50,512 bases of DNA from the IMG/VR virus record IMGVR_UViG_3300038365_000119, positions 1 to 50,512 of that record, one strand, 5' to 3'. Positions 10,238 to 45,954 of the stretch are shown piece by piece. Below the pieces are notes generated by a model. It was not told the DNA's origin and searched no databases. It saw only the letters and a program-made list of their open reading frames with translations. This DNA is from a virus (lineage: Duplodnaviria > Caudoviricetes). A program made the translations under genes and the position numbers. The first letter of the stretch is position 1, and every line of letters starts with the position of its first letter.

Positions 10238-10353
10238 AGCGGCGCGGAAGCCGATGTTGTGATTCACGTTCGAGCGCGGATTGTTCAAGTTCAGGGCACC
10301 CACGCCCGCGTTGGACGCATTGTTCCAGTTCGCCCCGCGATACGGCAACCGCT
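10238..10353 (-). ncRNA. DGR template repeat (TR), 116 bp
   Basis: Lies between avd and RT; ten AAC/AAT codons; differs from both VRs only at adenines. Confidence 0.95.
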
Positions 10354-10386
10354 AAAAACTATACGGCTCACTCCCCGCGAAAGCCG

Positions 10387-10740
10387 CTATTTAACGGTTT
10401 TCATATACCCGCCGATCATGCGCCCGATTTCGTCCAGACACCGCGCCCAAAACTCATATTTTTTGAACGGTAAGCAGGGCGCTTGATTCGGGTATAGCCT
10501 TTTGTCTGCCGCCATCCGTATAAGGTGCCGTAAAACGTCAAGTTCAATGTCCAATTCCTGCAACGTCGTTTTCTTGTAATATTTCTTTTCGATTGCAACG
10601 GCAAGTTCGAACATTCGGTACATGGATTCCCGGATTTTGCTGGCCAGCACGTATTTTTCGGATTTCGGAAACTGAATCAGGGCTGGGCTTCCGTAAAGAA
10701 TCATGTCGTAAATCTTTTCCTTGATCTTGAATTCTTCCAT
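10387..10740 (-). CDS. avd: DGR accessory variability determinant (four-helix bundle)
   Basis: QFPKSEKYVLASKIR...KKTTLQELDIELDVLRHLIR...EIGRMIGG; sits between the target gene and TR. Confidence 0.9.
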   Translation of the reverse strand: MEEFKIKEKIYDMILYGSPALIQFPKSEKYVLASKIRESMYRMFELAVAIEKKYYKKTTLQELDIELDVLRHLIRMAADKRLYPNQAPCLPFKKYEFWARCLDEIGRMIGGYMKTVK

Positions 10741-10761
10741 GCCATACCCTTTCAAGCATAA

Positions 10762-10781
10762 GGGCGGGCTTTCGCCCGCCC
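10762..10781 (-). promoter_or_regulatory. DGR target-recognition hairpin after VR1
   Basis: Minus strand gggcgggc-GAAA-gcccgccc just after the target stop; matching hairpin after VR2. Confidence 0.75.
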
Positions 10782-10797
10782 GTCAGTTATTCGGTTT

Positions 10798-11877
10798 TCA
10801 GTTCCCAGCGGTTCCATAAAAAGCGGCGCGGAAGCCGATGTTGCGAAACACGTGCGAGCGCGGAGCGCTCAAGTTCAGGGCACCCACGCCCGCGTAGGAC
10901 GCATAGTACCAGCTCGCCCCGCGATACGGCAACCGCTCCGCTTCGTGGTTTCTAAGCCAAAAGTGATTCCCTGCGCTTGTAAATCCGGAATCGGGATAAA
11001 GCCCCAGCCCTTTCAGCAGTTGCGGAACATTCACGCCGTCGGCGGCGGAAATGTTTTTCAGATCGTCGTTTCTGTCGCCCTCTCCGCTTGACGGGAATTC
11101 AACCGCCGTGTTCAGCCTGATTCCTCCGCTCGCGCTTTTCCCGTCAAATTTTAGGGTTCCCGCGGTCCCCGGCGCGACAAGCGAACCGTCCGGCATGATC
11201 GCTTTCCATTCCGTGCTGTCCGCTCCCATGTTGCAATCCGCTTTCATGGCGTTGCCGTATGGGATAATCTGAATTTCACCGGTCACAAGGCGCAACCCGG
11301 AAACCCATTCCCACACATTCCCGCAAAGGTCCGCGATGCCCGAACTGTCGTAATTGTGATACCACGTAACCGGTCCGCTCCCCGTCGCGGTTCTGCCGTT
11401 GTAGGTGTTGCCGCCGTCTGTGTACGTGTAGGAAACAACGCCCTTTTCAAAAGCGTTGTTGTAGTCCTTTCCGTAATTGGTATTCCCGTGCGGCTCCGTC
11501 TTGTTTTTATAGCACCAGTTCATAAGCGCCCCCCAAAGGGCGTTCGTTTGCAGGTGCCACCCCGCCCCTTTGTTCCGGCAGACCTGCAAGGCGGTATCAA
11601 AGTCAATGCTCGCGCGGGGGTCCTTGAACGGCAGGGAATAGGCCCGGTCGCTCACGACGATGTTTTGATATTTGCTTTCGTAGATCACCGGGATTTCCAC
11701 GCCGTCAACAAGGAACGCCGGAAGCGTGTCCTGCGTCCCGCCCGTGATAACGTCGGCGTATTTCTGGACCGGGATGGCCACCATGATCGACGGCATTCCC
11801 AAGTCGTCCAGAATCACGGTGTTTTTCCCGCCGCTCAACGATTCGACGGCAAGTTTCAGGTCATCAAAATTTGTCAT
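10798..11877 (-). CDS. DGR target protein 1 (FGE-sulfatase/C-type lectin fold), probable receptor-binding protein
   Basis: DLCGNVWEW and C-terminal RGASW...IGFRAA; contains VR1; at the end of the tail module. Confidence 0.88.
   Translation of the reverse strand: MTNFDDLKLAVESLSGGKNTVILDDLGMPSIMVAIPVQKYADVITGGTQDTLPAFLVDGVEIPVIYESKYQNIVVSDRAYSLPFKDPRASIDFDTALQVCRNKGAGWHLQTNALWGALMNWCYKNKTEPHGNTNYGKDYNNAFEKGVVSYTYTDGGNTYNGRTATGSGPVTWYHNYDSSGIADLCGNVWEWVSGLRLVTGEIQIIPYGNAMKADCNMGADSTEWKAIMPDGSLVAPGTAGTLKFDGKSASGGIRLNTAVEFPSSGEGDRNDDLKNISAADGVNVPQLLKGLGLYPDSGFTSAGNHFWLRNHEAERLPYRGASWYYASYAGVGALNLSAPRSHVFRNIGFRAAFYGTAGN
10822..10937 (-). repeat. DGR variable repeat VR1
   Basis: 116-bp match to TR with 11 substitutions, all at TR adenines. 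Confidence 0.95.
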
Positions 11878-11896
11878 TGTTCTTTACCTCCATAAA

Positions 11897-12271
11897 TTAG
11901 ACCAACGCCCAAAGCGTCAGCGTTACATTGTCCATGCTGAACGGGACCGGCTCGCGCTTGATGTTCGGCGTGTGTTCCATGCCGCCGTTCTCTCCGCTTT
12001 CTCCGCCGTCCTCGCCGCCGCTCTCCGGCTCTTCCACCGTTTCCGTGTACTCGCGCGCCGGAATGTCGATCTGTGCCACATAAGCTTCCGCAATGCCCGG
12101 AATCACGCCTGAAACAAGGTTCCCGTATTTATCCCGGCACACGTCAAGGTGGTTTGCGTCGTCCCGTTCATAGCGTTCAAGGTTGAACATCAGTTCATCG
12201 TTCAGGGCAAGCTTGTTCCCGCTCTCGGTGTAGGGGATTTTTTCACCGCTGTTTTTCTCAATGACGATCAT
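11897..12271 (-). CDS. Tail-region hypothetical protein
   Basis: 124-aa ORF in the late operon. Confidence 0.65.
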   Translation of the reverse strand: MIVIEKNSGEKIPYTESGNKLALNDELMFNLERYERDDANHLDVCRDKYGNLVSGVIPGIAEAYVAQIDIPAREYTETVEEPESGGEDGGESGENGGMEHTPNIKREPVPFSMDNVTLTLWALV

Positions 12272-12443
12272 TTTTCTTTCCCTCCATTTTTTTCATGGTT
12301 TCCATAGCCTCCCGTGACCGGGCCGCTATGCACTCCGCCGCTTCGCGGTCGGCGGCTGTCACTTTCGCACCGCCGCGGAAGCTTTCAAGCACATAAGTTT
12401 CATGCCGGCGGCGCTCTTCCGACTTCAATAAAATATTTGCCAT
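12258..12443 (-). CDS. Small hypothetical protein
   Basis: 61-aa ORF overlapping both neighbours. Confidence 0.55.
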   Translation of the reverse strand: MANILLKSEERRRHETYVLESFRGGAKVTAADREAAECIAARSREAMETMKKMEGKKNDRH

Positions 12444-12940
12444 CAGTAGACCCCTCCTGTGACGACGTACTTCACGTTTACGGATTTTGCGCCGCCCGTG
12501 AATCTGATTTTGAATCCGTTCACCTGCTTGTCGGAAACGATCACATGACCGATTCCGCCGCTGTCTGCTCCCGTCGCGTCAACCGACACGTCGTAATCGG
12601 TTGTATCGCGCTTCGCCGCAAGCGAAACGGTCTTTACGGAATCGTTGAACGGGTATGCCATCGTGTTCGTAAGCATCACCGCGCCGACTTCGCCGTTCAG
12701 CTTTTTCAGGTTTTGGGCGTGGTGCAAAAGCAAGCGCATTGCGTCCGCTCCGAACTCGTTCCCGGCAAAAATCCCCTCTTCAATGTTGTTGAATTTCGTC
12801 TGATTCTGCGGGGTGCCCTGTTGGATAACTTCGCCCTCAACCGGGGTGTGGGTGATCGTCCCGTCGGTGTTCTGAACCTCTTTGAACCGATCTTCGAATT
12901 CGGTTACATGGTCCTGCCAAAATGTCCGCTGGTAAGCCAT
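12443..12940 (-). CDS. Tail fibre/baseplate-associated protein
   Basis: AYQRTFWQDHV...QQGTPQNQTKFNNIEEGI resembles a tail-fibre N-terminus. Confidence 0.6.
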   Translation of the reverse strand: MAYQRTFWQDHVTEFEDRFKEVQNTDGTITHTPVEGEVIQQGTPQNQTKFNNIEEGIFAGNEFGADAMRLLLHHAQNLKKLNGEVGAVMLTNTMAYPFNDSVKTVSLAAKRDTTDYDVSVDATGADSGGIGHVIVSDKQVNGFKIRFTGGAKSVNVKYVVTGGVY

Positions 12941-12943
12941 CTG

Positions 12944-13261
12944 TTATACCTCCTGTTCATCTTCGCGCAAATCGAACGTGAAACGGTATAAAACGCCCTC
13001 TTGTACGCTTTCGATCAAGATATTTTCCGTCTTTTCCGCCCAAACAGCGTTGTTTGTGTTGAAAAGCTGAACGCCGCTGATCGTGACAGTCTGCCCGGCT
13101 TCCGGGATAATCGAAAAATACACGGCAATTTTCCCGTCTGCCAGCCGTTCTCTCCGGCTGATCGGAACTTTGTGCCATGTATCGCCGATCTTGTATTTTG
13201 CGTATGCAATTTCGCGGTCTGTGTACTGCTTGTAGCCCTCTATTGCCTCCGGTGAAAGCAT
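12944..13261 (-). CDS. Tail-region hypothetical protein
   Basis: 105-aa ORF in the operon. Confidence 0.6.
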   Translation of the reverse strand: MLSPEAIEGYKQYTDREIAYAKYKIGDTWHKVPISRRERLADGKIAVYFSIIPEAGQTVTISGVQLFNTNNAVWAEKTENILIESVQEGVLYRFTFDLREDEQEV

Positions 13262-13279
13262 AATATCAGTCCCCTTTCT

Positions 13280-14287
13280 CTAAGATTTACAGCGGGAAGT
13301 TCCGCACCGTTTCGATTTATATATGAATCCCTCCGCTGTTGCCTCCGATATGAAAGCCCCCGTTTCGCGGCCCGGAACGGTCGATCTGCCCGGCTTCGTG
13401 CCCGCCGCCGGGGTGCGGTATCCGTATTCGGCGCTTTCCGCCTCAACCTCCAGCCCGCCGCGCGCGAATCCGGCCCGCGTGTTTCTTTCCGTTTCGGTTC
13501 CCGCTGTGATTCGCCCGGTCATTCCGGACGTATAGGGGAAGCCGCGGGCTTTCGCCTCGATCTGAACCGCTCGTTTTTCCAAAGCGGCGATTGTCGATCT
13601 GTACGGTTTCGTTCCCGCCGCCGGGGTGCGGTATCCGTATTCGGCGCTTTCTGCCTCAACCTCCAGCCCGCCGTGGGCGATTCCGGCCCGTGTGCTTCTT
13701 TTTGGCTGGGTGCCGCTCCGGATTCTCCCGGTCATGCCGCTTTTGTAGCCGAAACGGTCCGAATCCGTTCCAACTACCAGCCCGATCTGGCATTGATAAA
13801 TCAGGCTTTCCATGTGCGCCGTAAGGCGTTTATACATGTCGATGGCCTTTTTTACAGCAAAATATCCAGCCGGGGCGCGTGAATGCGTTGTATCAAGCAC
13901 GACGCGAAAATAGAAAGGCTCCCCGGCGTATTCGAACCACTCTTCAATGGAACTGTTCGGGTGAATGTTCCCCAGCGCGGTTTCAACGGCATACTTTGTC
14001 CCCAGCCGCTTCTGCACCTTTACGCTGTCCTTGATGATCGCGCGCTTTGCTTCAATCGGGTACGTGTAGTCGTACCAATCCACATGCAGGTCATACGAAA
14101 GAATGTCAAGAACATTTTCCGGCAGTTCGTCGATGCGGGCATAGATGACGTTCTTTTTTATCTCCATCGCCGTAACGTGAAGCTGTTTGGCAATGGAATT
14201 CGCCAGCGCAATCATCTTTTCGTCGGATTTCAGCGACGGGGGAAGCGAACGGGTAAAGTCGATTGAATACAGATCATTCATCTTCAA
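13280..14287 (-). CDS. Tail protein I (P2 gpI-like baseplate wedge) with C-terminal repeats
   Basis: YARIDELPENVLDILSYDLHVDWYD...LGTKYAVETAL...EEWFEY; follows baseplate J. Confidence 0.8.
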   Translation of the reverse strand: MKMNDLYSIDFTRSLPPSLKSDEKMIALANSIAKQLHVTAMEIKKNVIYARIDELPENVLDILSYDLHVDWYDYTYPIEAKRAIIKDSVKVQKRLGTKYAVETALGNIHPNSSIEEWFEYAGEPFYFRVVLDTTHSRAPAGYFAVKKAIDMYKRLTAHMESLIYQCQIGLVVGTDSDRFGYKSGMTGRIRSGTQPKRSTRAGIAHGGLEVEAESAEYGYRTPAAGTKPYRSTIAALEKRAVQIEAKARGFPYTSGMTGRITAGTETERNTRAGFARGGLEVEAESAEYGYRTPAAGTKPGRSTVPGRETGAFISEATAEGFIYKSKRCGTSRCKS

Positions 14288-15401
14288 CCCCTCCGTTTAC
14301 AATGTTCGTCCCCGTTATCACCGCAACGGAATTTTCGGGAACCGCCAGATACAGCGGATTCCTGATCTCTACCCGTTTCGCTCCCGTCTGCATAAGCAAG
14401 GAAATTAAATAGGACGGGTTAATATCCCGTCCCATTTTTGCGGATTGCCATTCCTTGTATGTTTCGACGGCCTGTTGCACGGCGCTTTCGACGACGCTTG
14501 CGCTTGCCGCGCTGGGTTTCGGCACGAAAAACGTTATGTCAACGGTCGTTTCTATCGTTTCCGGAGCGGATACAATGACTTGATCGGTCATCGGTCTAAC
14601 CTTGTCGTCGGTCAAAACCGCTTTGACCTTGTTTATCACCTCTTCCCCCGGAAGCCCCCCTCCTTTCAGCAGGATACGAATATCCGCAACGCCCGGCGCT
14701 GTGGAAGTTGCTTTCGCGTCAACAATCAGCGCGGAAGCCGACTTCGCGTAATATTCATACGCGCCCAGCGGCCCCGCCGTAGAGAACGTTTCCATGCTTT
14801 CGCGCATTCGGTCGTAAAAGGCTTCGTCGCTTTCTTCCTCCGCGCCGCCGCCGCTCTCCGTTGTGTTTTCGACGCTCTCATAGTAGGGGAAAATGTCAAT
14901 AAGCTGGCTGATCTGCCCCGGAACAAAGCCGTTTCCGGTTTCTCCGGTTTCCGTGCATTCCGCGGCAACCTCTCCGCTCACGCTCCCCGCCGGAATCGTC
15001 AGCGCGGCGGTCGTCTGAAAAATGATTTCGCCGTCAACCGTCGTGCGCGTCCCTGCCGGAATGGTAGTCGAACCCGTCAGCGGCATTGAAAGGGTGAACT
15101 TCAACGTCGTTTTCGCCTTTTCCGGCTCCATGCGGTACGCGTCTTTGAAGATTTCCGCCAGCGAATCAAGGTATTCTCCCTCCGCATATCGCGGTAAATT
15201 CTGTTTTGCTGAAAAATCAATGTTCACCCGCTCTTGAATGATGATGTCCGCTATCCATAGAATAAAGAGCCGCACCGGGTCCGCTGGATACAGCGTCCGC
15301 CCTGTGAACATTTCGTAAGATGCAATCAGATCATTCACAAGCGTTTTCGTGTCCGTATCCACAAATTCAATTTCCGGGTATCCTCTTACGCTATTCGCCA
15401 T
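14274..15401 (-). CDS. Baseplate J-like protein
   Basis: YAEGEYLDSLA, GGAEEESDEAFYDR, STAGPLGAYEYYA, VRPMTDQV. Confidence 0.88.
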   Translation of the reverse strand: MANSVRGYPEIEFVDTDTKTLVNDLIASYEMFTGRTLYPADPVRLFILWIADIIIQERVNIDFSAKQNLPRYAEGEYLDSLAEIFKDAYRMEPEKAKTTLKFTLSMPLTGSTTIPAGTRTTVDGEIIFQTTAALTIPAGSVSGEVAAECTETGETGNGFVPGQISQLIDIFPYYESVENTTESGGGAEEESDEAFYDRMRESMETFSTAGPLGAYEYYAKSASALIVDAKATSTAPGVADIRILLKGGGLPGEEVINKVKAVLTDDKVRPMTDQVIVSAPETIETTVDITFFVPKPSAASASVVESAVQQAVETYKEWQSAKMGRDINPSYLISLLMQTGAKRVEIRNPLYLAVPENSVAVITGTNIVNGGVEDE

Positions 15402-15708
15402 TTATATCCACCTCCACAACCGGAATCAGTTTCCCCGGCGAATCCCCTTGTTCGAAAGTGACCGCAAGGATTTCCGCCCGCGGCTCACTCTTTTCTACCG
15501 CGTCCATAACCTCCGAAACGGCGATTGTCTTTGCTATCTGAACCGGCTTGTCAACAAACCGCTGTGAAAGTCCCAGCCCGCGATCAAGGGGAACGGAGAA
15601 CTGCGGCGTTGAAATAATCATGGCGACGTTCTGCAAAACCTCTTCTTCGGTTGTTTCCGGTGCGAAATTTATATTTTCAAGGCTGAATGCTTTTACCGTG
15701 TATGCCAC
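15391..15708 (-). CDS. Baseplate wedge GpW/gp25-like protein
   Basis: EEVLQNVAMIISTPQFSVPLDRGLG...EPRA; gene order. Confidence 0.75.
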   Translation of the reverse strand: MAYTVKAFSLENINFAPETTEEEVLQNVAMIISTPQFSVPLDRGLGLSQRFVDKPVQIAKTIAVSEVMDAVEKSEPRAEILAVTFEQGDSPGKLIPVVEVDINGE

Positions 15709-15722
15709 CGATTCGTCCCCCT

Positions 15723-16124
15723 TTACCGCTCCGGATAAGCTTGCATTGATACGTCAACCTTTGCCGCCAGCAAGTTCCCGCGGTTGTCGTATCTATTTAG
15801 CTGATTCGAAACTTTCGTGATGACCCATTTGCTTTTTCCGTATGCCTTTGACCCGATCACAAGCCGGTCGATTTTCCCGCTCCTTACGGCATTGACCAGC
15901 TTTGTAATCTCTTTCATGGGGTTTACTCCCAAGAACACGGAAAACATCATCGTGAATGAAATAGCTTCCACGTCCGTTCCGGTGTACTCCAAAAGGGGGT
16001 CTTTCAAATGCCGGTCGTGCGTCGCGTACTTCGCTCCGACTTCCCATGTCAGACCGTCGAATGTTTTCACTTGTTTTCTGGACACGCTGAAAACCGTGTC
16101 GCCCCATGCTCCGATAACCGCCAT
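15723..16124 (-). CDS. P2 GpU-like tail protein
   Basis: IGAWGDTVFSVS...YATHDRHLKDPLLEYTG; gene order. Confidence 0.75.
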   Translation of the reverse strand: MAVIGAWGDTVFSVSRKQVKTFDGLTWEVGAKYATHDRHLKDPLLEYTGTDVEAISFTMMFSVFLGVNPMKEITKLVNAVRSGKIDRLVIGSKAYGKSKWVITKVSNQLNRYDNRGNLLAAKVDVSMQAYPER

Positions 16125-16448
16125 CTATATCCCCCCGATCACGAACCCGTCGCCGTCCCCGTTCGGCAGAAAAACGCAAAGCACCGTTTCGCCCGGCGAC
16201 GGAAGCCACGGGGCGACGGTTACGCCGTGCGTATGACTTTCCGTCTTGCCCTCATGTGTGTGGCCCTCCGCCTCCTGAACGCCGTATGTCAGCGTCGTTT
16301 CTTCCACGGTTACGAACGGCGGGTTTTTAATAACTTTCAGGGGACCCGAAACAAGGTTGTTCCTGTCCTCGAATGTGACGCGGGCCGTTCTGTCGGCGGC
16401 ATTTACGGAAGAAACCTTTCCGATTCTCACAATGTTTTCAATGCCCAT
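16125..16448 (-). CDS. Baseplate spike/GpV-like protein
   Basis: IVRIGKVSSVN..TARVTFED, WLPSPGETVLCVF..DGFVIG, HTH-x-HTH His motif. Confidence 0.7.
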   Translation of the reverse strand: MGIENIVRIGKVSSVNAADRTARVTFEDRNNLVSGPLKVIKNPPFVTVEETTLTYGVQEAEGHTHEGKTESHTHGVTVAPWLPSPGETVLCVFLPNGDGDGFVIGGI

Positions 16449-17749
16449 CAGTATCCCTCCAGCACTTTCCGTAACGTCACACTTACTTTGTAGCCTCCCG
16501 TAAGGTTGTGGGTCGCCTGTTCGATGATGTACTTTCCGTCGAACATTCCCCATCCCGATACGGTCACGGTAACGCCAGCGACTAAATCAAGGTCGCCGAC
16601 AAGGGTAAAGCTCGCCTTGAATTCCTGCTTGTTTTTCTCTCTAAGGCGCTTCATGGCAAGCTGTCGCGCTTCTTCGCGGTTGTTTACTTTTTCGTTGATT
16701 TCAAGGACCTGCCCGGTCCCGTCTGAACTCCGCGGCTTGTACGTGTATTCGATGACCGCTTTTGTTGTCGGGTTCGTATAGGAAACGTGGCAACTGCTGT
16801 ACGCGGTATCGTGAAAATTCGTCGAAAAGCTGTAATTTATCACGTCCGCTTCGCCGCGCTTGATCGTCCGGACCGCGCTTTTCTGTTCATATTTCAGTTC
16901 TTCGAACAGAACGATCATCTTCGCGGTGACTTTCAGCGATATTCCGGCGTTTTTGCAAAGCCCTTGAAGAAACACGATGTCCGATTGCTGTACCTGCTCC
17001 GTCCGCGTGTAATACGGGTCGTAATCCGATTCGAACATGCACTTCAAACCGTTTTTCGCGGCGATTTCGTTCGCAATGCCCGAAAGCTTGATCTTCTCCC
17101 ACGCCTTTGTTTTTTTCTGCGTCCGGATGGTTGACGTGTAGGGAATGGAAGTCGCTTTCAAATCCACTTTCGCGCCGGGTCCCGACGCGTCCACGCTGTC
17201 CAGTTCAAAGGTCCCGCAATCCAGCACCTTGTCCCTGCCGGTCGAATCCCAATTCTTTTGAATGACAACTGCGGTGATCTCTGCGCCCTTGCACCCGCCG
17301 CTTGCCGTCATAGTATCCTGCTTCGCGGAAACCTTTGTGACTTGATTTAACGCGTACCACCCTTTGTAATCAACATGAATCGGGTACGGGATTCCTTTCC
17401 TCAAATTCAAATGGGTAACTTTCCCTTTGTAGTTCGTAAGCATTTTCCCGGGCTTACCCTCGCCGTAGCTGGTGTACTGCGGTCGCCCGGTCACGGTCAC
17501 TTCGTCGCCGATCTTCCATCCGTCGTCTTGAACTGCGGGGGGCGGGGGAGGCTGAACCGGCGTATTCAACCATTCTTTCAGCCACACGCCCTCCCGGTCG
17601 TCAAGCGTCAGTTGCAGATCGTCCGTTTTGTCCGCTTCGTTGTCAGTATAGGTCATTGAAAGCAAATACTTTTCAATATCCCTTGTAACGTCCGCGCCCT
17701 CGAAAGTGACCTTTATTTCTGTCCGTCTTGCTTCGTTCGCGTTGCTCAT
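16448..17749 (-). CDS. Baseplate hub/late control D-like protein with inserted SH3-like domain
   Basis: SMTYTDNEADKTDDLQLTLDDR, QSDIVFLQGLC, LVAGVTVTVSGWGMFDGKYII. Confidence 0.82.
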   Translation of the reverse strand: MSNANEARRTEIKVTFEGADVTRDIEKYLLSMTYTDNEADKTDDLQLTLDDREGVWLKEWLNTPVQPPPPPAVQDDGWKIGDEVTVTGRPQYTSYGEGKPGKMLTNYKGKVTHLNLRKGIPYPIHVDYKGWYALNQVTKVSAKQDTMTASGGCKGAEITAVVIQKNWDSTGRDKVLDCGTFELDSVDASGPGAKVDLKATSIPYTSTIRTQKKTKAWEKIKLSGIANEIAAKNGLKCMFESDYDPYYTRTEQVQQSDIVFLQGLCKNAGISLKVTAKMIVLFEELKYEQKSAVRTIKRGEADVINYSFSTNFHDTAYSSCHVSYTNPTTKAVIEYTYKPRSSDGTGQVLEINEKVNNREEARQLAMKRLREKNKQEFKASFTLVGDLDLVAGVTVTVSGWGMFDGKYIIEQATHNLTGGYKVSVTLRKVLEGY

Positions 17750-36937: not shown

Positions 36938-37088
36938 TTCCGTTTACCTCCAGCAATTTTTTCTAAAGCCGCCGCAATCCCGTTCAGGGTCCATGCCACC
37001 GCGGAATACACGGCTTGACCCGGTTTCGATTGAAGCACCGCCGCTTTGAACTCCGCCAGCGCGCGGTTCAGGTCGTTCCGCTCGTTTT

Positions 37089-37274: not shown

Positions 37275-37277
37275 AAT

Positions 37278-37990: not shown

Positions 37991-37992
37991 GC

Positions 37993-38247: not shown

Positions 38248-38261
38248 TCTCAAAGCTCCTT

Positions 38262-38816
38262 TCAAACCCATTTTTTCAAAGCGTCATAAAGCATGTACGC
38301 TAAATCCTCATAACTGATTTCCCGGTGTTCGCATTCCCGTTTTACGATCATGTGACGGCTTTCCGGGTAAAACACGATTATTCCGATTCCCGGTGGGGTC
38401 AGGCTTTCGATCTTGTCGTAAATCTCAATCGGGACCGCGTAATAATTCCGGTTTCCGTGAAAGTTGTGCCCGTTTTCGCTTTTGAAGTCCGAAACGGTTA
38501 TTTTCACTTCAAAGCATGTCGTCAAAATTCCCAATTCATAAACGTGCTTGTGGTGTACGCAACCGCGGCATTCGTCGCACGGAAAAGCCTTTCCCGGAAT
38601 TTTACATGGTTGCGGGGGAATGAACTTCGTTGACGGGTGTTCGCGGGAACAATAACTTTCGTTGTTCGCTATGTAATCTTCAAAGCGGATAACATCGACG
38701 AACCCGGTTGGGGTTCTCACTTCCTCCGCCCAGCGTATGGTCCGCATACTGCTATTCATAGCTGGGCGGAAGTAGTGAAGCCGCTTTTTGATTGCCTTTG
38801 TCAGTTCCGTTTCCAT
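38262..38816 (-). CDS. Putative PD-(D/E)XK nuclease-like protein
   Basis: EEV..GFVDVI..CFEVKITVSDFKS..GNRNYYAVP. Confidence 0.55.
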   Translation of the reverse strand: METELTKAIKKRLHYFRPAMNSSMRTIRWAEEVRTPTGFVDVIRFEDYIANNESYCSREHPSTKFIPPQPCKIPGKAFPCDECRGCVHHKHVYELGILTTCFEVKITVSDFKSENGHNFHGNRNYYAVPIEIYDKIESLTPPGIGIIVFYPESRHMIVKRECEHREISYEDLAYMLYDALKKWV

Positions 38817-38825
38817 GTGCCGCCC

Positions 38826-39290
38826 TCATTTCCTGCGGCGCTTTTCCTTGCGCTTCTGCGGCGGCGGGGAAGAGGGGGACGGCTCCGGCGGAATAACTTC
38901 TTCCGAAATCACTTCGATTTCTTCAACGTCCGCCGGTTCAAAGCACAACGCGCAATCGGAACTATATGTGCCTGCGGCCCAATCCTTTTTGAAGCTTTCA
39001 AGGTCGTTTTTATACTGCGGGAACGGGTGGACCTGCTCGGAATAGTAAATCGCCATCATTATGCGTTCGTCGTCTGTCGGCTCCCAATTATGCAAATGGT
39101 AGCTTTCGTGATGGTCATAGCTCCAAAGGGAAAGAAGAACGGTCAATCCGTCGAACTGCTCGTTTGCCCGCTGTATGTTTTCAAAATCCCGGTACACCAT
39201 GCCTTGACCCTTGTACCGCTCCCGGATTTCTTCAATGCTCTTGCCGCCCGTTTTAAGGCGGCATTTTACGATTTTAGGTTGATAAGTCAT
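38826..39290 (-). CDS. Hypothetical protein
   Basis: 154-aa ORF in the operon. Confidence 0.6.
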   Translation of the reverse strand: MTYQPKIVKCRLKTGGKSIEEIRERYKGQGMVYRDFENIQRANEQFDGLTVLLSLWSYDHHESYHLHNWEPTDDERIMMAIYYSEQVHPFPQYKNDLESFKKDWAAGTYSSDCALCFEPADVEEIEVISEEVIPPEPSPSSPPPQKRKEKRRRK

Positions 39291-39308
39291 GTATTTTCAC
39301 CCTCATTT

Positions 39309-39842
39309 TTATACTTCATTGCCCCAACTTTCCCATCCCGGTCTTGTGTTGCGGGCAAAGAGTTCTATTTTTCTCGCGTCCGGAAACATGTCCTCCAACA
39401 TCAGATAAGCGCATTCCGGCTTTTTACTATGCGTCGTTGAACGTTCCCTCATGACCGTTGTATATTTTCCGCGGGTTTCTGATCTCGGTAAAAGGATTCT
39501 GCCTTTTTTGTAAAACCACAATAAGTATTCATGCGAAAATCTCACCGTGAAAGCTGGTGCGATTCCGTTTCCTTTGTCCCAAATAAACCGCGCATGGAGA
39601 GCGTAACCCATCCGTTTCATCTCTGCTTCTGCATCAAAAAGGAACTTGTCTATTGTCCACATGAAAACATTGTGCTTTTCTGCCGCTAAATTGAAAAAAG
39701 GCTTTTGTATGGAGAATATTTCCGTCAATCCAAGTGTTGGATAATCTAAGACTTTCCCTTGCCGCGGTCTGCATTTTCTTGTTCCGCCTTTTGTTTGCTT
39801 CCACGGTGGGTCGGTATAAATAATTCCGAAACCGCTATTCAT
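39309..39842 (-). CDS. MT-A70-family adenine methyltransferase
   Basis: IIYTDPPW, FMWT, HSKKPE, KIELFAR..GWESWGNE. Confidence 0.88.
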   Translation of the reverse strand: MNSGFGIIYTDPPWKQTKGGTRKCRPRQGKVLDYPTLGLTEIFSIQKPFFNLAAEKHNVFMWTIDKFLFDAEAEMKRMGYALHARFIWDKGNGIAPAFTVRFSHEYLLWFYKKGRILLPRSETRGKYTTVMRERSTTHSKKPECAYLMLEDMFPDARKIELFARNTRPGWESWGNEV

Positions 39843-40267
39843 TTCTCTTCTTTCCATTCCCACCAGCCCTGTTGACCGCGGGCCGGAATCGGGTTTTCAA
39901 ACATGATCGGATTTTTCAAAATCCATGCGAACCGTCCCGGTGAATAGTCGCCCAGCAACCGTTCCCGCTCGGTCAGCCTGTTTATAACCTCTTCAACCGG
40001 GACGCACCCGACAATTTCAACCGTGCCGATTACTGCGCCGTAGTCAAGGCGTGCGGCTCTGTCCCCGGTTCCTTGATACTCCGACAACATCTTTTCTATC
40101 TGCGGCATGGTCCCATTTTCAAGAATTCCCGTGCGCCACGCATCACGCTTCCCAGCGTGAACAGCGACGCGGCCCCGAATGTTCGTCTGCCGCGGGCGTG
40201 TTTCGTGGGGCTTTATTCCTGCGACAATTGCAAATGCAAAGGGCTGATAAACAGTAAATGCTTTCAA
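39839..40267 (-). CDS. ASCH-domain protein
   Basis: TVYQPFAFAIVAGIKPHETR..RGRVAVHAG..GAVIGTVEI..PIPARGQQGWW. Confidence 0.85.
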   Translation of the reverse strand: MKAFTVYQPFAFAIVAGIKPHETRPRQTNIRGRVAVHAGKRDAWRTGILENGTMPQIEKMLSEYQGTGDRAARLDYGAVIGTVEIVGCVPVEEVINRLTERERLLGDYSPGRFAWILKNPIMFENPIPARGQQGWWEWKEEK

Positions 40268-40721
40268 GCTGATCCCTCCTTTTTTCCGTTATAGACGACA
40301 ACCATAGACGGGAACGGGGCGGGGGCGTATACGTTGCCCGCTTCATCTGTGAATTTCAGCCTCCCGCGAATAAAGCGAATTTCCGCGCGCCCGTATATGT
40401 AGTCATGAAAGTATGCCGTGTCTGTTCGTGCCGGTAGAAGCAAAACAACGGTCGTCCCGTTCCGGGATTCTTCGTATGCCTTGCGAACCCATTTCCCGAT
40501 CTCGCGCCCGTATGGAGGATTGCAAAACACCGTACCCCCCCCGCAAGGTTCCACGGTTTATTCAGCCCGTCCGTTTCTTTCGTGTAATATTCCGGGCATT
40601 TTGCATTCCGGCACGTTGCCGCCGCGTCAAGCGTAAAATGAAATTCAGCGTTCAGACGGTCGAAAAAGTCCTGCGGCGTACACCATTCCATGTTTTTACT
40701 GCTTAAAAGGGCTTCATTCAT
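40264..40721 (-). pseudogene. Phage Dam-like N6-adenine methyltransferase, frameshifted in a G8 tract
   Basis: EWCTPQDFFDRLNAEFHFTLDAAA in one frame, VFCNPPYG..LLLPARTDT..RGRLKF in another; break at C8 (plus) 40535-40542. Confidence 0.8.
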
Positions 40722-40960
40722 TCTTCGTCACCGTCCCGCTCGCCGCTGTCCGCCGCCTGTTTCATCATCATTTCAATATCTTCTTTGCTTGCCCGCTCGA
40801 TCTGAAAATGCCACCTGTCGCCGATTCTGTAAGCGTCAATGTGCTTTGTCGGCCTGATTGCTTTTATCAACTCCGCCGTCTGATTCAGTATCAGAGCCGC
40901 CGCAAGGGTGAACCCCAGCCAAATCCAAAAGCTTGAAAAAATGAACCTGATAAACTCCAC
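40718..40960 (-). CDS. Small membrane protein
   Basis: GTG start, EFIRFIFSSFWIWLGFTLAAALIL TM segment. Confidence 0.55.
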   Translation of the reverse strand: MEFIRFIFSSFWIWLGFTLAAALILNQTAELIKAIRPTKHIDAYRIGDRWHFQIERASKEDIEMMMKQAADSGERDGDEE

Positions 40961-40962
40961 CG

Positions 40963-41190
40963 TTATTTCCTCCCCTCCAACCTGTCGGCAATGTTCAAAA
41001 TTCCCGTCATGGCTTCTTTGATATTTCCGTCTGTTTCCGCTGTGATCGAAAGCACCCGCGCAATATCCCGCAAACCCTCCGCCGCTTTGACCTCTTCCGG
41101 GGACGCGCCCGCGGCTTTCATGCAATCCGGGCATATTGGCATTCCCTCCGCGGTCGGTCCTCCGCACCGCTCACATTTTTTGAGCGTCAC
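40963..41190 (-). CDS. Small Zn-finger protein
   Basis: CERCG...ICPDC. Confidence 0.55.
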   Translation of the reverse strand: MTLKKCERCGGPTAEGMPICPDCMKAAGASPEEVKAAEGLRDIARVLSITAETDGNIKEAMTGILNIADRLEGRK

Positions 41191-41205
41191 CGTCGCCGCC
41201 CCCTT

Positions 41206-41883
41206 TCAAAACAATTTTTCTTTTGACTGATTCACAAGGTCGATAAACCGAATTTGCGCCATTTCCGCCGCCAGCCGCCCGTCCGCCTTTTTGAACTGCA
41301 CTTCGTCGATCTCAAATCCCAAGAAGTCAAAGCCCATTTCATAACAGGCAATTAAACTGCTTGCACTCCCTGCGTGAGTATCAAGAATCCTGTCGCCGGG
41401 CTGGGCGTAGTTTGAAAGCGTCCACCGATAGAGCTTTACCGGCTTCTGCGCCGGGCTGATCGTGTCGCCGTCCCGCTGTAACTCCGCCCTGTTGATGACG
41501 ACAACGCGCGTCGGACGGTCGAAAGACGTATAGGCAAGTTCGCAATCGCTCATTGAAAGGCCGTGTTGTCCTTTATCCCATACAATCCAGCCTTTCGTCC
41601 CCTTGTCCAGCATGGGGGCGAAATAATTCCCGCCCCATATAATTTGATTGACTGAAACCCGCTCCAACTCTCTGAAATATTCCGGTGGCGGCGTTTGTTC
41701 GTCCCAGCCTCTGAATTCGTGATATTTCCGGTTATGCTTCGGGTTTTTATGTACCCGGCGGCGTTGCCCATCATGCCCGATTCCGTAAGGCGGGTCACAT
41801 ATGGCAAGCTGAAAGTATTTGTCCGGGATTTCTTTCATTGCTTCCATGCAGTCAAGGTTATACAGGCGGTTCAGTTTGAACAT
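41206..41883 (-). CDS. N4/N6 DNA methyltransferase (beta class)
   Basis: DCMEAM, AICDPPYG, QKPVKLY, ILDTHAGSASS, GFEID. Confidence 0.88.
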   Translation of the reverse strand: MFKLNRLYNLDCMEAMKEIPDKYFQLAICDPPYGIGHDGQRRRVHKNPKHNRKYHEFRGWDEQTPPPEYFRELERVSVNQIIWGGNYFAPMLDKGTKGWIVWDKGQHGLSMSDCELAYTSFDRPTRVVVINRAELQRDGDTISPAQKPVKLYRWTLSNYAQPGDRILDTHAGSASSLIACYEMGFDFLGFEIDEVQFKKADGRLAAEMAQIRFIDLVNQSKEKLF

Positions 41884-41885
41884 GC

Positions 41886-42047
41886 TTATTCGCTCTTCCC
41901 TCGGAGTTGTAGCATTTTCTCTCGGACAAGCTTGTCAACTACTCTTCCGGGCGCTTTTAGCCCGCTGATCTGAACCAGCTTGTCAAGGTTGAATGCCGTC
42001 TGCGGCGTGACCCGGACCGTCACTTTCAGATTGTGCTTTTTCTTCAT
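41886..42047 (-). CDS. Small RHH-like protein
   Basis: LKVTVRVTPQTAFNLDKL..GRVVDKLV. Confidence 0.5.
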   Translation of the reverse strand: MKKKHNLKVTVRVTPQTAFNLDKLVQISGLKAPGRVVDKLVREKMLQLRGKSE

Positions 42048-42627
42048 GCTTACCGCCCTCCTTTTTGTTTTTGAGTTCTTCCGCGGCAAATAGAACAATG
42101 GAAGCCGCCGAAATGTGAACGTAATCAAGGAACATAACCGCTCCCGTGAAGCGTACCCGGAATTTCTCAACGTCCGCGGCGGTCACGTATTGCCGCCCGA
42201 AATGGCGCTTCATTTCCCGCCATGCCTCCCACGGGATAAAGAAAAACTTGTCCTGAATTCCGATACAGACCGCGGCAACCGCTCCGCATCGGGCGTGATC
42301 TTCCAGATCGTCCATTTGCTCACCCGTGAGAACGCCGCGCTTCATGCGGTCCGTGGTCGTGTACTTCGCTTCAAACACGATTGAGCGCCCGCCGTCAAGC
42401 GTCCCCTGATAGTCCGGCTGGGCTGGAGCGGTGAACCACCCCGTGAAAGTCCCGTCCGGGTGCTTCGTCTTGACCCTGAACGCTTCGGGGGTTTTGTCGA
42501 TCTTCGCCCGGCCCCGATCCCGATACGCAACGCAAGCGGCTTTTATGTTATCCTCGAAAATATGCCCCTGCGCGTTGTTTACGGTGTTTTGCCACCTCTG
42601 GCGGGCGCTCCGCTGGTCTATCTGCAC
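41983..42627 (-). CDS. recU: RecU-like Holliday junction resolvase
   Basis: GHIFED, KIDKTPE, AQPDYQGTLDGGRSIVFEAKYT. Confidence 0.8.
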   Translation of the reverse strand: MQIDQRSARQRWQNTVNNAQGHIFEDNIKAACVAYRDRGRAKIDKTPEAFRVKTKHPDGTFTGWFTAPAQPDYQGTLDGGRSIVFEAKYTTTDRMKRGVLTGEQMDDLEDHARCGAVAAVCIGIQDKFFFIPWEAWREMKRHFGRQYVTAADVEKFRVRFTGAVMFLDYVHISAASIVLFAAEELKNKKEGGKHEEKAQSESDGPGHAADGIQP

Positions 42628-42863
42628 GTTTCATCACCCCCGAAATGCTCATAATCGTAAAGTCTGCTAAGGACAAGTTCGATTCCCCGGCGTGGGAATG
42701 CTTCGCCGTTTTCCCGTCGGATTGTGAACCGCTCGCCGGGGTGCCGCTGATCTTCCAGTTGACAAAGGCGTTCAATCACCGAACCATAATCGCCGCTGTG
42801 CGTGACCTCCCCGGACGGTAACATGCGCGTTATTGAACCGCTCGCGGTGGGTAAGCTGTTCAT
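42618..42863 (-). CDS. Hypothetical protein
   Basis: 81-aa ORF overlapping both neighbours. Confidence 0.5.
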   Translation of the reverse strand: MNSLPTASGSITRMLPSGEVTHSGDYGSVIERLCQLEDQRHPGERFTIRRENGEAFPRRGIELVLSRLYDYEHFGGDETCR

Positions 42864-43408
42864 TCGCTCGCCCCGCTCTCGATCATCTTCCGGCGGGTGT
42901 GCCTGTCCATGCCCTCCATCATTGCCGCAAGCTTCAAGGCTTCTTCCATACTCATTTCCGGCTGGTCCGGGACAAGCCCGGCTTTATCCGACGGCGGGAA
43001 AATCCTGTTTTTGTTTACGAACGCCGTATAAAAGCGTTCAAGCTCGGATTTCATAGCCGCGTTGAAGAATTCAAAGCTGATTTCGATTTCCAGCCGTTCC
43101 GCCGCTGTGCATTCAGTCCCTACTTTCTTTCGGGTCCTTCCCGTGTTGGCTCCGACGCACCCCGCGGCGCATTTACCGGTAATCGAATAGATCACTTGCA
43201 GAATAAGCCGCCTTTCAAGCTCGGTTTTGTACCTGAACCACGCCAATTCTTCCCGCTCGGCTGAAATATCCTCTTCGGTGATGTTGTAACGGGTCATCAG
43301 CGCTTCAAGCAGGGCGGCGGCGGAATCCTTTTCACCGTCCACGCCGCGCTCTGCCAAAGCCTGAACCCGCTTGATCTTCTGCAAAAGCCGTTCCCGCTCC
43401 GCTGTCAT
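42860..43408 (-). CDS. DUF2786-like protein
   Basis: LLQKIKRVQALAERGVDGEKDSAAALLEALMTRYNI. Confidence 0.7.
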   Translation of the reverse strand: MTAERERLLQKIKRVQALAERGVDGEKDSAAALLEALMTRYNITEEDISAEREELAWFRYKTELERRLILQVIYSITGKCAAGCVGANTGRTRKKVGTECTAAERLEIEISFEFFNAAMKSELERFYTAFVNKNRIFPPSDKAGLVPDQPEMSMEEALKLAAMMEGMDRHTRRKMIESGASE

Positions 43409-43421
43409 TCTGTGATGCCTC

Positions 43422-44246
43422 CTATTCTTTCTTTCTCAATTTTAGGTAGATTGACCAGCCTGTTACCGGGTTGTATTCATAGGCCGCGCCGTAATCGTCG
43501 TCCGTCGTCAGGGTCCAGCCGGGGTACTTCTTTTCCCAAAACTCCCGGCCCGGTCGCTCCTTTGCAATTTTTTCAACCTGTCGGCGGGTGTACCGTCCAT
43601 CATTTGCCCGGCTTGTAGGCCGTTCAAGATTCTGCGACGTGGAATACCGCTTTTTCCCTCCGGGTTGCTTCGCAAGGTAGTTGCATAGGGCGGCAATTCC
43701 GTTTTCGTCCGATTGTAGGCGGTCGGCGTTGATATACCCGATTTTGTCGCCTTTCTTCTGTCCTTTCCGTTTTCGCTTGCGCCACAACTCTTCGACGGTG
43801 TTACGGTCAAGCCCGCTGTTCATGATGATGTGATGATGAATTCGGGTCGGCTTCTCGCCTTCCTTGCCTGTGCTGTACGCTGTCACAAGAATGTATTTCA
43901 GGGGCGGCAACCCCTCTTTCTCCCGGCGGTACTGGACCCGGCGCAAGTAGTTTGAAATTTCACGTTCTGCGGCCTCAATGGTCGGAGGAAGATTTTTCGC
44001 GCTGTATGTAGCCGTGACGTGAAGAGCATTTTCATCACTTCCGAAATTCAGGTTCCCAAGCTGTACCAAATACCGCCGGGCGTTCTTGTCGTTCAGGTTT
44101 TTTTGCTTCGGGGCCGATTCTTTGACTTTTTTTGAACGCTTCCCGCGGCGTGAAACTGTAACCTGTTCCGTGGAATACCCGAAAATATCAACCTCCCTGT
44201 ACTGATCGCCGCAATATATCTTCTTTTCTCTCATGAAGCTTCGCAC
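43422..44246 (-). CDS. HUH-superfamily rolling-circle-type replication initiator
   Basis: Motif I HVTATY, motif II RIHHHIIMN, motif III LCNYLAK, then YSTSQNL. Confidence 0.75.
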   Translation of the reverse strand: MRSFMREKKIYCGDQYREVDIFGYSTEQVTVSRRGKRSKKVKESAPKQKNLNDKNARRYLVQLGNLNFGSDENALHVTATYSAKNLPPTIEAAEREISNYLRRVQYRREKEGLPPLKYILVTAYSTGKEGEKPTRIHHHIIMNSGLDRNTVEELWRKRKRKGQKKGDKIGYINADRLQSDENGIAALCNYLAKQPGGKKRYSTSQNLERPTSRANDGRYTRRQVEKIAKERPGREFWEKKYPGWTLTTDDDYGAAYEYNPVTGWSIYLKLRKKE

Positions 44247-44600
44247 TTTGCTTCACCCTCTTTCTGCCGATGATGAAGCGGGCGTGTTCAGCGTCCCAGC
44301 CGTCATTGAAAAACTTGAAATGATTGAAAACAGGGTTTCCAACATTCCAACTTTCCAACAACTTCGCTTTGTGTGAATAGGCAAGGGGGGAAGAGGGTTC
44401 CTATCCTCGCCCCCTCCCTCTTCCCCCCTTGCAATCCCTCCATCACCCTCGGCGGCGAACAAAGAGAAAAAAGAGTACGAAAAGGGAACGGGACCCCCTG
44501 AAAAAATTCCCTGCTTTTCTTCCTGAACGTGACAAGGCTTTTGCTGGAACGATAATACCCATTACAAGCCCGCCACGCCGCTCAAAAACGGCGCTATCTC

Positions 44601-44717
44601 TTGACTTTTCCGCCGCTTTATGATATACTCACGTTAGGTTGATAAGTGATGTATTTTCATCGGCGGAATCCCGCTCCGTGGCTTGCTCTCTCAAAGCAGA
44701 CACGGGGCGGTTTTCTT
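44601..44717 (+). ncRNA. Putative ~80-nt antisense RNA with its promoter, upstream of rep
   Basis: TTGACT (44601), 17 bp, TG-a-TATACT (44624); hairpin 44671-44710 followed by ttttctt; opposite to the early operon. Confidence 0.55.
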
Positions 44718-44744
44718 ATGCCCTTTTCAAGTTGCGTCCGGCGG

Positions 44745-44939
44745 CTATTCCAATGTGCGGCGTGCCCGGTCCTCAATCCTGATTTCCTCCGCGTCGCTTT
44801 TTGCGGAAAGCAGGGAGGCAACTGCCGCACCCAGCGCCTCGCCCCAAATATCCACCGGGTAATCCTCCAGCGCGTTCAAGATCGTGTCGCGTAATTCCTC
44901 GACGGCCTCCGCCCGGCCCGTCTGCATATCCTGTCCCAT
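44745..44939 (-). CDS. Hypothetical protein
   Basis: Short ORF with RBS after DGR target 2. Confidence 0.45.
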   Translation of the reverse strand: MGQDMQTGRAEAVEELRDTILNALEDYPVDIWGEALGAAVASLLSAKSDAEEIRIEDRARRTLE

Positions 44940-44957
44940 TTCGTTTTCACCCCTTTC

Positions 44958-44979
44958 CGGACGGGCTTTCGCCCGTCCG
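44958..44979 (-). promoter_or_regulatory. DGR target-recognition hairpin after VR2
   Basis: Minus strand cggacgggc-GAAA-gcccgtccg, same context as the VR1 hairpin. Confidence 0.75.
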
Positions 44980-44994
44980 TCAGTCATTCGGTTA

Positions 44995-45954
44995 TCAGTT
45001 TTCAGTTTTGCGATAGAAAGCGGCGCGGAAGCCGAAGTTGTGATACACGTTCGAGCGCGGACTGATCAAGTGCAGGGCACCCACGCCCGCGTTGGACGCA
45101 TTGATCCAGTACGCCCCGCGACACGGCAACCGCTCGCCCTCGGTATCAACCCATAACCATCCGTCGTTTTCAGCGTCGGAGGCGGGGAAGAGGGACAGGG
45201 CTTTCAACAGTTCGGGGGCTTCAATGTCAGCTTCTACGTCTGCCCAGCGGCAACCGTCCCAATCCTCGCCGCTCTCTTCATTCGTCAGCCGAATACTGCC
45301 GTCGTCAACCGCGTACCGCGTCGGCTTGCCGTCAAACAGAACAGGGGTCCAAAGCTTGCTTTTTTCGGAAGTGTCAACCGGATTCGCGGCGTTGTTGTTC
45401 TCGATCACCTGAATTTCTCCGTTCATCAGCCGCAAGCCCGCAATCATTTCCCACACGTTGCCGCAAAGGTCCTGAACCCCGTATGGGGTGTGGTCGTGCG
45501 CCCATGTCGCCGGGCCGCTCCCAGCAAGCGTCATTCCTCCGTAAGCGCAAACCTCGCCGCGCTCCGACGGGTCCGCATGGTAGCTTCCGAATTTCGTATT
45601 TCCGTGCGGCGGGGTGCCTTTCCGCTTGCTGTCAAGCACAAGAAACGCCGATTCCGGCAAGGTCATCAAATGCCAGCCAGGTCCTTTCGAAAAACAGGCT
45701 TCCGCCGCCTGTTCGTTCGTCAGGCCGGTGGCGGGCTTCATGTAGGGCATGGAGTAGGCTTTTCCGTTGATGATCGTGTTCGGGTACTTCGAAATGAAAA
45801 TTTCGTCCACCTCTTTGCCGTCAATGATGAACATAGGGTGGGTGGTGTCGGAGCCGCCGGGGAACAGGTCGGAATTTTTCTCTTTCGTGAAGCGCACCAT
45901 GATAGACGGAATCCCCGCTTCATCGAAAACCACCACGTTGTTTGCGTTAATCAT
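44995..45954 (-). CDS. DGR target protein 2 (paralog of target 1) in the early region
   Basis: GIPSIMV, ISKYPN, GWHLMT, PHGNT, GSGPATWAH, DLCGNVWE shared with 10798-11877; contains VR2. Confidence 0.88.
   Translation of the reverse strand: MINANNVVVFDEAGIPSIMVRFTKEKNSDLFPGGSDTTHPMFIIDGKEVDEIFISKYPNTIINGKAYSMPYMKPATGLTNEQAAEACFSKGPGWHLMTLPESAFLVLDSKRKGTPPHGNTKFGSYHADPSERGEVCAYGGMTLAGSGPATWAHDHTPYGVQDLCGNVWEMIAGLRLMNGEIQVIENNNAANPVDTSEKSKLWTPVLFDGKPTRYAVDDGSIRLTNEESGEDWDGCRWADVEADIEAPELLKALSLFPASDAENDGWLWVDTEGERLPCRGAYWINASNAGVGALHLISPRSNVYHNFGFRAAFYRKTEN
45019..45134 (-). repeat. DGR variable repeat VR2
   Basis: 116-bp match to TR with 8 substitutions, all at TR adenines. Confidence 0.95.

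Follow-up and report, generated by a model that had tools for sequence, protein, structure and literature searches.

A single diversity-generating retroelement (DGR) almost certainly serves two paralogous target genes in the window, by which is meant the whole stretch of DNA analysed here, the 50,512-base IMG/VR virus record IMGVR_UViG_3300038365_000119, and the more distant of the two targets belongs to a clade of distal targets that is conserved across phages. The element comprises a template repeat (TR), flanked by the genes for the accessory protein Avd and for the reverse transcriptase (RT), and two variable regions, VR1 in the tail-module target (T1) and VR2 in the distal target (T2) (Table 1). 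An original prediction, made from the letters of the sequence alone, had claimed that one TR diversifies two paralogous genes, and had placed the repeats and counted their differences. Core search and alignment bear this out: the 116-nt core matches exactly three sites in the whole record, namely TR, VR1 and VR2, and a repeat search returned a single three-copy family, at 10178-10361, 10762-10945 and 44959-45142. T1 and T2 are 40% identical over 347 columns (E 2e-75), as befits the diverged paralogue of the tail-region target that T2 had been taken to be.

Read on the minus (sense) strand, the TR holds 24 adenines in its 116 nt, every one of which stands at codon position 1 or 2, and its codons include seven AAC and three AAT. 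VR1 differs from the TR at 11 positions and VR2 at 8, and all 19 differences fall on TR adenines; the hypergeometric chance of finding all mismatches on adenine is 3.2e-9 for VR1 and 1.2e-6 for VR2. Because only three sites are changed in both variable regions, and two of these carry different bases, VR1 and VR2 were written independently, in agreement with the earlier claim that the eight substitutions of VR2 are confined to adenines and form a pattern unlike that of VR1. The reading frame of VR2, which ends 24 nt before the T2 stop codon, yields the same peptide as had been quoted. VR2 would lie about 12 kb from the TR on the excised circle, as had also been proposed, because 17-bp direct repeats bound the prophage. 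Orthologues of the RT are 72% identical in the related genome G002 and 64% identical in G004.

The sequences beside the variable regions point in the same direction. A GC hairpin with an 8-bp stem and a GAAA loop is located 40 nt past each VR, and the two hairpins differ by a compensatory change from G:C to A:T on both sides of one stem pair. In the non-coding 75 nt on the 3′ side, VR1 and VR2 share 51 positions, including the ACTG-rich spacing and the hairpin, whereas the 60 nt upstream of them are unrelated (17/60 identical). The TR has no such hairpin, and both variable regions part from the TR sequence right after the core. In BPP-1, a GC hairpin after the VR is required for homing. Among six dual-target phages examined, five have such a hairpin after both VRs, often of different sequence and with a common shape, the exception being VR2 of phage Lagaffe, after which no GC hairpin is predicted within 80 nt. 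Because the 3′ flank and the hairpin are conserved, T2 meets the needs of a DGR target site, beyond having a similar coding sequence.

To follow the distal target across phages, IMG/VR was scanned with an alignment of T2 orthologues, which gave 486 relatives among 580 candidate stretches. The best 80 loci were kept, and of these 70 resemble T2 more than T1 (44-63% identity) and 10 resemble T1 more; no sequence nearly identical to the window T2 was found in IMG/VR, the best being 63% identical. With T2 as query, two places each were found in Faecalibacterium phage Lagaffe, Clostridium phage Saumur and Dulem virus 37, in whose annotations the baseplate genes are followed by target, Avd, TR and RT, and a second paralogue is located at a distance. 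One TR with two adenine-biased VRs was found in 11 of the 12 records tested; this layout is present in Lagaffe, Saumur, Dulem virus 37 and eight IMG/VR records, and the survey of related prophages that the original prediction had called for gave 10 other records with the same layout as the window. The twelfth record, G001, has kept both targets and lost Avd, TR and RT. An RT lies within the locus at nine of the ten T1-type loci, the tenth of which ends at the gene, and at only one of the 70 T2-type loci (L041). L041, which has structural-module neighbours, is the sole T2-type exception and is a deletion remnant: it appears that a large deletion in a decaying prophage put the early region, with a dUTPase gene and the T2-type gene, beside the T1 module.

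The same division is seen in a maximum-likelihood tree of 57 non-redundant sequences, from which 36 of 93 rows had been removed at >=90% identity to a kept row. All 40 distal targets fall into one clade with a support of 99 in the Shimodaira-Hasegawa-like approximate likelihood-ratio test (SH-aLRT), nested among the cassette-adjacent targets, and this clade includes the targets of the window, Lagaffe, Saumur, Dulem virus 37 and G004. The tree was built by a quick method with SH-aLRT support only, and the Saumur and Lagaffe distal targets and the VHML outgroup have long branches. The sole misplaced row labelled distal, L092, represents a gene of T1 type that stands at the end of its contig. It is well supported by these comparisons that the distal targets represent one old paralogue clade kept outside the structural module.

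In the window, T2 is one of the early genes, 33 kb away from the tail module, and is not part of the tail or baseplate module. The gene is oriented as the genes upstream of it, its start overlaps the stop of a small open reading frame (ORF) with two hydrophobic segments, an AGGAGG site stands 8 nt ahead of its ATG, and the gene for a rolling-circle-type replication initiator (Rep) follows downstream. These features uphold the earlier placement of T2 among early genes just upstream of rep. The first early transcription unit would therefore end with T2, and this position suggests that T2 is expressed early. The small ORF has no Pfam or PHROG match, and homologues of it stand upstream of T2 in G001 and G002. 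A scan of 43300-49900 for promoters and terminators gave about as many sites as expected from shuffled sequence, and no clear promoter ahead of T2. The neighbourhood also holds a Holliday-junction resolvase gene and DNA methyltransferase genes, the latter 3-6 kb from T2.

The setting of the distal target was compared at 51 T2-type loci, 17 of 68 rows having been dropped because the ORF caller did not place the target gene. PHROGs were searched with 20 of the 29 most frequent neighbour clusters, the other nine having median lengths of 69 to 336 aa; 11 of the scanned families could be named, six are of unknown function and three were unmatched. The named neighbours are single-stranded DNA-binding protein, NTP pyrophosphohydrolase, Rep, Holliday-junction resolvase, DnaC-like loader, MazF-like protein, DNA methyltransferase, SbcC-like nuclease, radical SAM protein, ParB-like protein and primase, and all 11 belong to the PHROG categories of DNA and nucleotide metabolism, moron or ‘other’. 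No head, tail or lysis family is present among the 20 scanned families. A Rep homologue is located within 6 kb of the target at 22 of the 70 T2-type loci. What is constant in the clade is a location away from the structural module, in the company of genes for DNA metabolism and anti-restriction, and not a strictly early position.

Rewriting of the distal targets is also visible in populations. In all eight groups of near-identical T2 orthologues, the 135-nt window that holds the VR is richer in variable columns than the remainder of the gene, the cleanest groups having 20 variable columns in this window and 2 in the other 832 nt, or 25 and 11 (1012 nt). The VR of the distal targets varies among related phages; invariance of VR2 had been named by the original prediction as an outcome that would speak against it. 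Among four near-identical phages with an identical TR, 53 of 54 VR2 mismatches fall on TR adenines and each phage has its own pattern; L044, which was out of register, was dropped from this count. Relatives of the window phage occur in digester, bioreactor and soil metagenomes. Run X2 gave an 8.3-kb contig that spans Rep to T2 with 51 differences from the window, and long contigs of X3 end at 45035 and resume at 45112, that is, they break within VR2. Among the differences listed, the TR-adenine site of VR2 at 45072 differs among runs and is split within X3, again in contigs. This contig evidence makes ongoing diversification of the window phage's own VR2 likely. One of the runs, X19, is labelled RNA-Seq and was judged to be probably DNA.

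It could be supposed that T2 is a decaying duplicate of T1, in which the VR differences are relics of past homing. Signs of decay do occur in the clade, since the G005 copy is split in two ORFs, the L094 copy is frameshifted in the VR, and the RT-TR-Avd cassette of G001 has been lost. However, the window T2 has an intact frame preceded by a strong ribosome-binding site, and a confidently predicted fold. Its clade is monophyletic, and dozens of phages have intact orthologues. The hairpin in cis is conserved with a compensatory change, and the hot spots of variation at the VRs of near-identical orthologues show that rewriting is current. A relic is thus very improbable.

The contigs of X2 also include one of 3.1 kb with the layout VR1, Avd and TR, in which the VR1 region has 26 differences from the window VR2, the same number as the window VR1. 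Its TR piece has 0 differences from the window VR2 where 8 would be expected, and X3 and X10 show 9. Assembly via a single shared 31-mer should not give such identity, which could be a tool artefact or the result of a VR-to-TR conversion.

Two further genomes, G006 (L094/L105; 71 kb, rated 100% complete) and G009 (L095/L106), have a T2-type gene without a T1-type gene, RT or TR. Among their four near-identical copies the VR is the sole variable part, with 20 variable columns against 2, and the changes fall on first and second positions of AAY-like codons. This variation may have been written from a template acting in trans from elsewhere, or may be inherited.

The two target proteins share a fold and differ in what surrounds it. 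AlphaFold 2 models of T1 and T2 have a predicted local distance difference test score (pLDDT) of 91.9 and 92.7, respectively, and VR2 encodes the binding face at the C-terminal end of the predicted C-type-lectin fold. T1 superposes over residues 1-355 on the full length of TaqVP of a Thermus aquaticus prophage DGR (PDB 5vf4), with 351 residues superposed, Z 53.2, a root-mean-square deviation of 1.8 and 40% identity. TaqVP is also the best Foldseek match of T2 (template modelling score, TM, 0.92; 32% identity), which has the same single-domain FGE-subtype fold with a C-terminal VR; T2 is trimmed and shorter, lacks the N-terminal helix and is distal, whereas TaqVP is cassette-adjacent. Likeness to Mtd of Bordetella phage BPP-1 (PDB 1yu0 and related entries), which has a DGR-diversified lectin-fold C-terminus and AAY-rich template codons, is weak for T1 and T2, the fold match being confined to the lectin domain, and BPP-1 differs in having a single target. 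T1 matches FGE-sulfatase in Pfam below the cut-off of that family, and T2 matches no Pfam family at E 0.01; no signal peptide or membrane segment was found in T2.

A conserved N-terminal leader, which forms a helix at residues 5-15 of the T1 model, is present in 11 of 11 T1-type sequences aligned and in 0 of 22 T2-type sequences, and two internal insertions of the T1-type sequences are missing from T2. Homologues of the small phrog_9010 and phrog_8734 proteins are encoded beside T1-type genes at 11 of 11 loci and of phrog_7177 at 6 of 11, and homologues of all three are absent at 69 of the 70 T2-type loci (690 kb in all). These small proteins are presumed to be adaptors or chaperones of T1. 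A complex prediction for the phrog_8734 protein and T2, both given as alignments, scored 0.01 against a mark of 0.32, which speaks neither for nor against binding.

Many T2 orthologues (L018, L028, L035, L037, L042, L048, L055, L058, L065, L066 and others) have an N-terminal extension of 50-95 residues, made up of a conserved mini-domain of about 35 residues (MAKxK...M/F-x-AEG...F) and an acidic or cysteine-rich linker, and another group has a cysteine-rich N-terminal extension instead. The extension matches no Pfam family and is not encoded as a separate ORF in the window or at nine other loci. A profile search of 1.84 billion representatives gave 88 matches. Three of these were fetched. Two belong to this family, one being a fusion of a T2 orthologue to Rep-like sequence and the other a short fragment of the N-terminus; the third, an adhesin-like repeat protein of 2778 aa, was taken as spurious. 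The fusion (P0042, 438 aa) is a T2 orthologue that has lost its VR end and runs into Rep-like sequence, the likeness being judged by eye, and may be a deletion that joined the neighbouring T2 and Rep genes.

What T2 does can be approached by asking whether it is carried on the virion. T2 may be a second, alternative receptor-binding protein of the virion, produced in sufficient amount to be mounted on the tail or elsewhere, which would give the phage two diversified specificities and a wider host range; this is possible, if somewhat short of probable, and several observations speak for it and against a non-virion role. The predicted fold of T2, like that of T1, is the TaqVP/Mtd-type lectin fold of phage receptor-binding tips, its matches in BFVD are mostly proteins named tail fibre, and its residues 15-101, like T1, weakly match a PHROG labelled tail protein. 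Because the template, and with it the binding-site repertoire, is shared with a presumed receptor-binding protein, the ligand class of T2 is suggested to be similar to that of T1. A host-range role for both targets has been proposed by the authors of the Lagaffe study in the passages on its DGR, in which two targets are thought to double the efficiency of host-range broadening (PMC11792537). The T2 gene of Dulem virus 37 and of the G008 group follows the endolysin and lysis genes at a distance of a few kb on the same, late strand, and may be expressed there by late read-through. No effector domain or partner of T2 was found, and the window T2 has none of the N-terminal extensions, which themselves match nothing known.

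Other observations argue against a second virion receptor binder. At 69 of the 70 T2-type loci the gene is outside structural modules, and the exception, L041, is the deletion remnant, with an ORF in which a methyltransferase and a sheath fragment are fused. T2 lacks the T1-specific helix and insertions, the adaptor-gene homologues are not beside it, and the closest solved relative, TaqVP, is described in the account of its structure as a monomer without a fibre-attachment domain (PMC6328139). Moreover, T2-type genes persist in G006 and G009 without T1, RT or TR. A binder that is not mounted on the baseplate is favoured by these points and also by the variable N-terminal add-ons and the translational coupling to an early ORF. 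The earlier view that T2 is probably not a virion receptor-binding protein thus gains from the missing helix and the missing adaptor genes, its non-virion status being what we infer from them. The accompanying view that T2 is made early agrees with the position of the gene in the window and does not extend to the clade as a whole, because T2 of Dulem virus 37 and the G008 group sits after the lysis genes.

In the mechanism that is proposed for the window, TR RNA would be reverse-transcribed by the RT with Avd, with errors at adenines, and the cDNA would replace either VR1 or VR2. The VRs would be recognized by features on their 3′ side, namely a GC-rich end that diverges from the TR, the ACTG-rich spacing and the GC hairpin with its 4-nt loop. 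In the tail module, T1 would be the variable protein of the canonical TaqVP type. T2 would be a soluble, single-domain lectin-fold binder that is made in the infected cell before virion assembly, is not mounted on the baseplate like T1, and draws its binding site from the same range of sequences. Its ligand would be variable and would come from the host or from a competitor; counter-defence, exclusion and host takeover are examples of what T2 could serve. As the cell in which an early protein is made also contains the genome that specifies it, selection would act on each variant directly in the infected cell. That T2 is a soluble, non-baseplate and non-virion binder from the early unit has about an even chance of being correct. 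The wider proposal, that the T2-type proteins represent a conserved family of DGR-diversified, non-virion intracellular binders of infected or lysogenic cells, a kind of phage ‘antibody’ selected cell by cell against variable host defences or competing phages, is put forward tentatively. A soluble lectin could also act only after lysis, by coating receptors on debris or neighbouring cells, so that adsorption is less wasteful or competitors are excluded. The compact single domain, with neither signal peptide nor membrane segment, and the binding-site repertoire in common with the presumed receptor binder T1 would suit such a role. However, the idea is purely inferential, no sign of release or of extracellular action is present in the sequence, and the role has no need for an early placement; it is considered improbable.

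The layout of one template and two targets in a phage is already in print for related gut phages, and none of the published accounts, as far as their passages on it go, establishes what the distal target does. The study of PMC11792537 (2024) reports for Lagaffe two variable regions, two Mtd-like targets that are 40% identical, and variation at both VRs over 18 cognate genomes, and the passages of PMC5883640 on this phage describe only one target. PMC5758913 (2017) lists many DGRs associated with phages, prophages included, in which one target is adjacent and another, within 50 kb, is not, and PMC12629997 (2025) reports distal second VRs beside counter-defence genes in human-gut prophage DGRs, mostly of Bacteroidota. 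The target lists of the former and the genome maps of the latter may already include relatives of the window phage; both are case lists, which in their relevant parts contain neither a paralogue clade nor a comparison of distal with cassette-adjacent targets. The original prediction was therefore right that such a target has no established role, and the distal second target itself had been reported in 2017, 2024 and 2025. What is added here is the clade of distal targets, its DNA-metabolism setting, the loss of helix and adaptors, the retention of the hairpin and the VR hot spots. Cellular DGRs are described in which one template serves several paralogous lectin-fold targets, and DGR-diversified lectin-fold sensors of bacterial conflict systems offer a precedent for an intracellular target (PMC4891356, PMC10907252). 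These differ from T2 in being cellular and often lipoproteins or fusions to signalling or NTPase domains, whereas T2 is encoded by a phage and is not joined to any other domain.

The usual explanation of phage DGRs is that they switch tropism at the tail tip. A distal target that has been kept for long outside the structural genes, stripped of T1 features and still rewritten, suggests another use of targeted hypermutation; if the intracellular reading is true, a phage DGR serves counter-defence or exclusion besides host recognition, and if T2 is simply a second receptor binder, one template drives two independent host-range determinants. The distal clade provides a concrete set of genes for testing the role, including those of the cultured phages Lagaffe and Saumur, and the value of the present results lies more in the regularities of the clade than in the instance in the window.

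The window phage is a Lagaffe/Saumur-like temperate myophage of about 46.8 kb between 17-bp direct repeats at 2585 and 49407, which delimit the prophage; in contigs of X2 and X3 from related phages, the match to the window ceases exactly at 49407. It resembles Lagaffe in having the TR between Avd and RT, an FGE/Mtd-like target after the baseplate genes, an IS30-type integrase, and a second paralogue of about 40% identity, about 10 kb off, past the lysogeny switch and among early DNA-metabolism genes. The two Lagaffe targets are gp26 and gp40, of which the distal gp40 falls into the same clade as T2. The window T2 is 44% identical to the Lagaffe gene and differs from it in that the annotated gp40 extends about 350 nt past VR2. 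Saumur, unlike Lagaffe, has its distal target directly upstream of the replication initiator, as in the window.

Table 1. Features of the DGR, its two targets and the prophage borders in the window (positions from the first base of the record).
Feature	Position	Strand	Basis or remark
Left 17-bp direct repeat copy, putative attachment-site (att) core	2585..2601	.	repeat search
DGR reverse transcriptase	8948..9931	-	PF00078 RVT_1, E 3.3e-20; directly downstream of TR
TR, 116-nt core	10238..10353	-	matches VR1 and VR2
Avd accessory protein	10387..10755	-	PF22296 bAvd, E 1e-27
GC hairpin 40 nt past VR1 (8-bp stem, GAAA loop)	10762..10781	-	
T1, cassette-adjacent variable protein in tail module, 359 aa	10798..11877	-	phrog_2889, E 2e-130
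VR1	10822..10937	-	11/11 TR mismatches at TR adenines
Three small tail-module genes (phrog_8734, phrog_9010, phrog_7177) preceding T1	11897..13261	-	PHROG matches
Rolling-circle-type replication initiator (Rep), downstream of T2	43422..44246	-	PF23343, E 6e-8; phrog_3584, E 3e-79; HHH and YLAK motifs
GC hairpin 40 nt past VR2 (8-bp stem, GAAA loop)	44959..44978	-	
T2, distal variable protein, predicted single-domain C-type-lectin (FGE-subtype) fold, 319 aa	44995..45954	-	phrog_2889, E 3e-107
VR2	45019..45134	-	8/8 TR mismatches at TR adenines
Small ORF, two hydrophobic segments	45947..46255	-	stop overlaps T2 start by 8 nt
Right 17-bp direct repeat copy, putative att core	49407..49423	.	repeat search and contig ends

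The phage genes are almost all encoded on the minus strand. Starting at the right end, a helix-turn-helix protein, unmatched small ORFs and a HAD-like protein are followed by the small ORF with two hydrophobic segments and by T2; after T2 come a gap of 750 nt, the Rep gene, and then the Holliday-junction resolvase gene and several DNA methyltransferase genes. A block of plus-strand genes at 4121-6586 stands between the late operon and the early unit, and the IS30-type integrase (2655-3884; HTH_38 plus rve) is just inside the left 17-bp repeat. Host genes, for a cold-shock protein and a ferritin-like protein, lie to the right of the prophage, and to its left, beyond the repeat, an ORF at 40-2076 has phage-lysozyme, SH3 and Ig-like domains. 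An Rfam search of the window returned no family.

Several smaller observations concern these loci. Within the gap between T2 and Rep (44247-44994), a perfect 17-nt inverted repeat is present at 44381-44397 and 44416-44432, with an 18-nt loop, and a block conserved with G002 holds two promoter-like sites on the plus strand, at 44529-44556 and 44601-44629; the inverted repeat and the conserved block could be the origin used by Rep or a control region. In G001 (L014:1-3689), holin-like and endolysin genes follow directly after T1, T2 is 63% identical to the window T2, and the VRs have drifted, that of T2 being 68% identical to the window TR. At L041:4072-5598, one ORF consists of the N-terminus of a DNA methyltransferase, a tail-sheath fragment and the tail of phrog_7177. 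Finally, the left-flank ORF at 40-2076 contains a 171-nt direct repeat (1-171 and 268-438), the copies of which are 90% identical.

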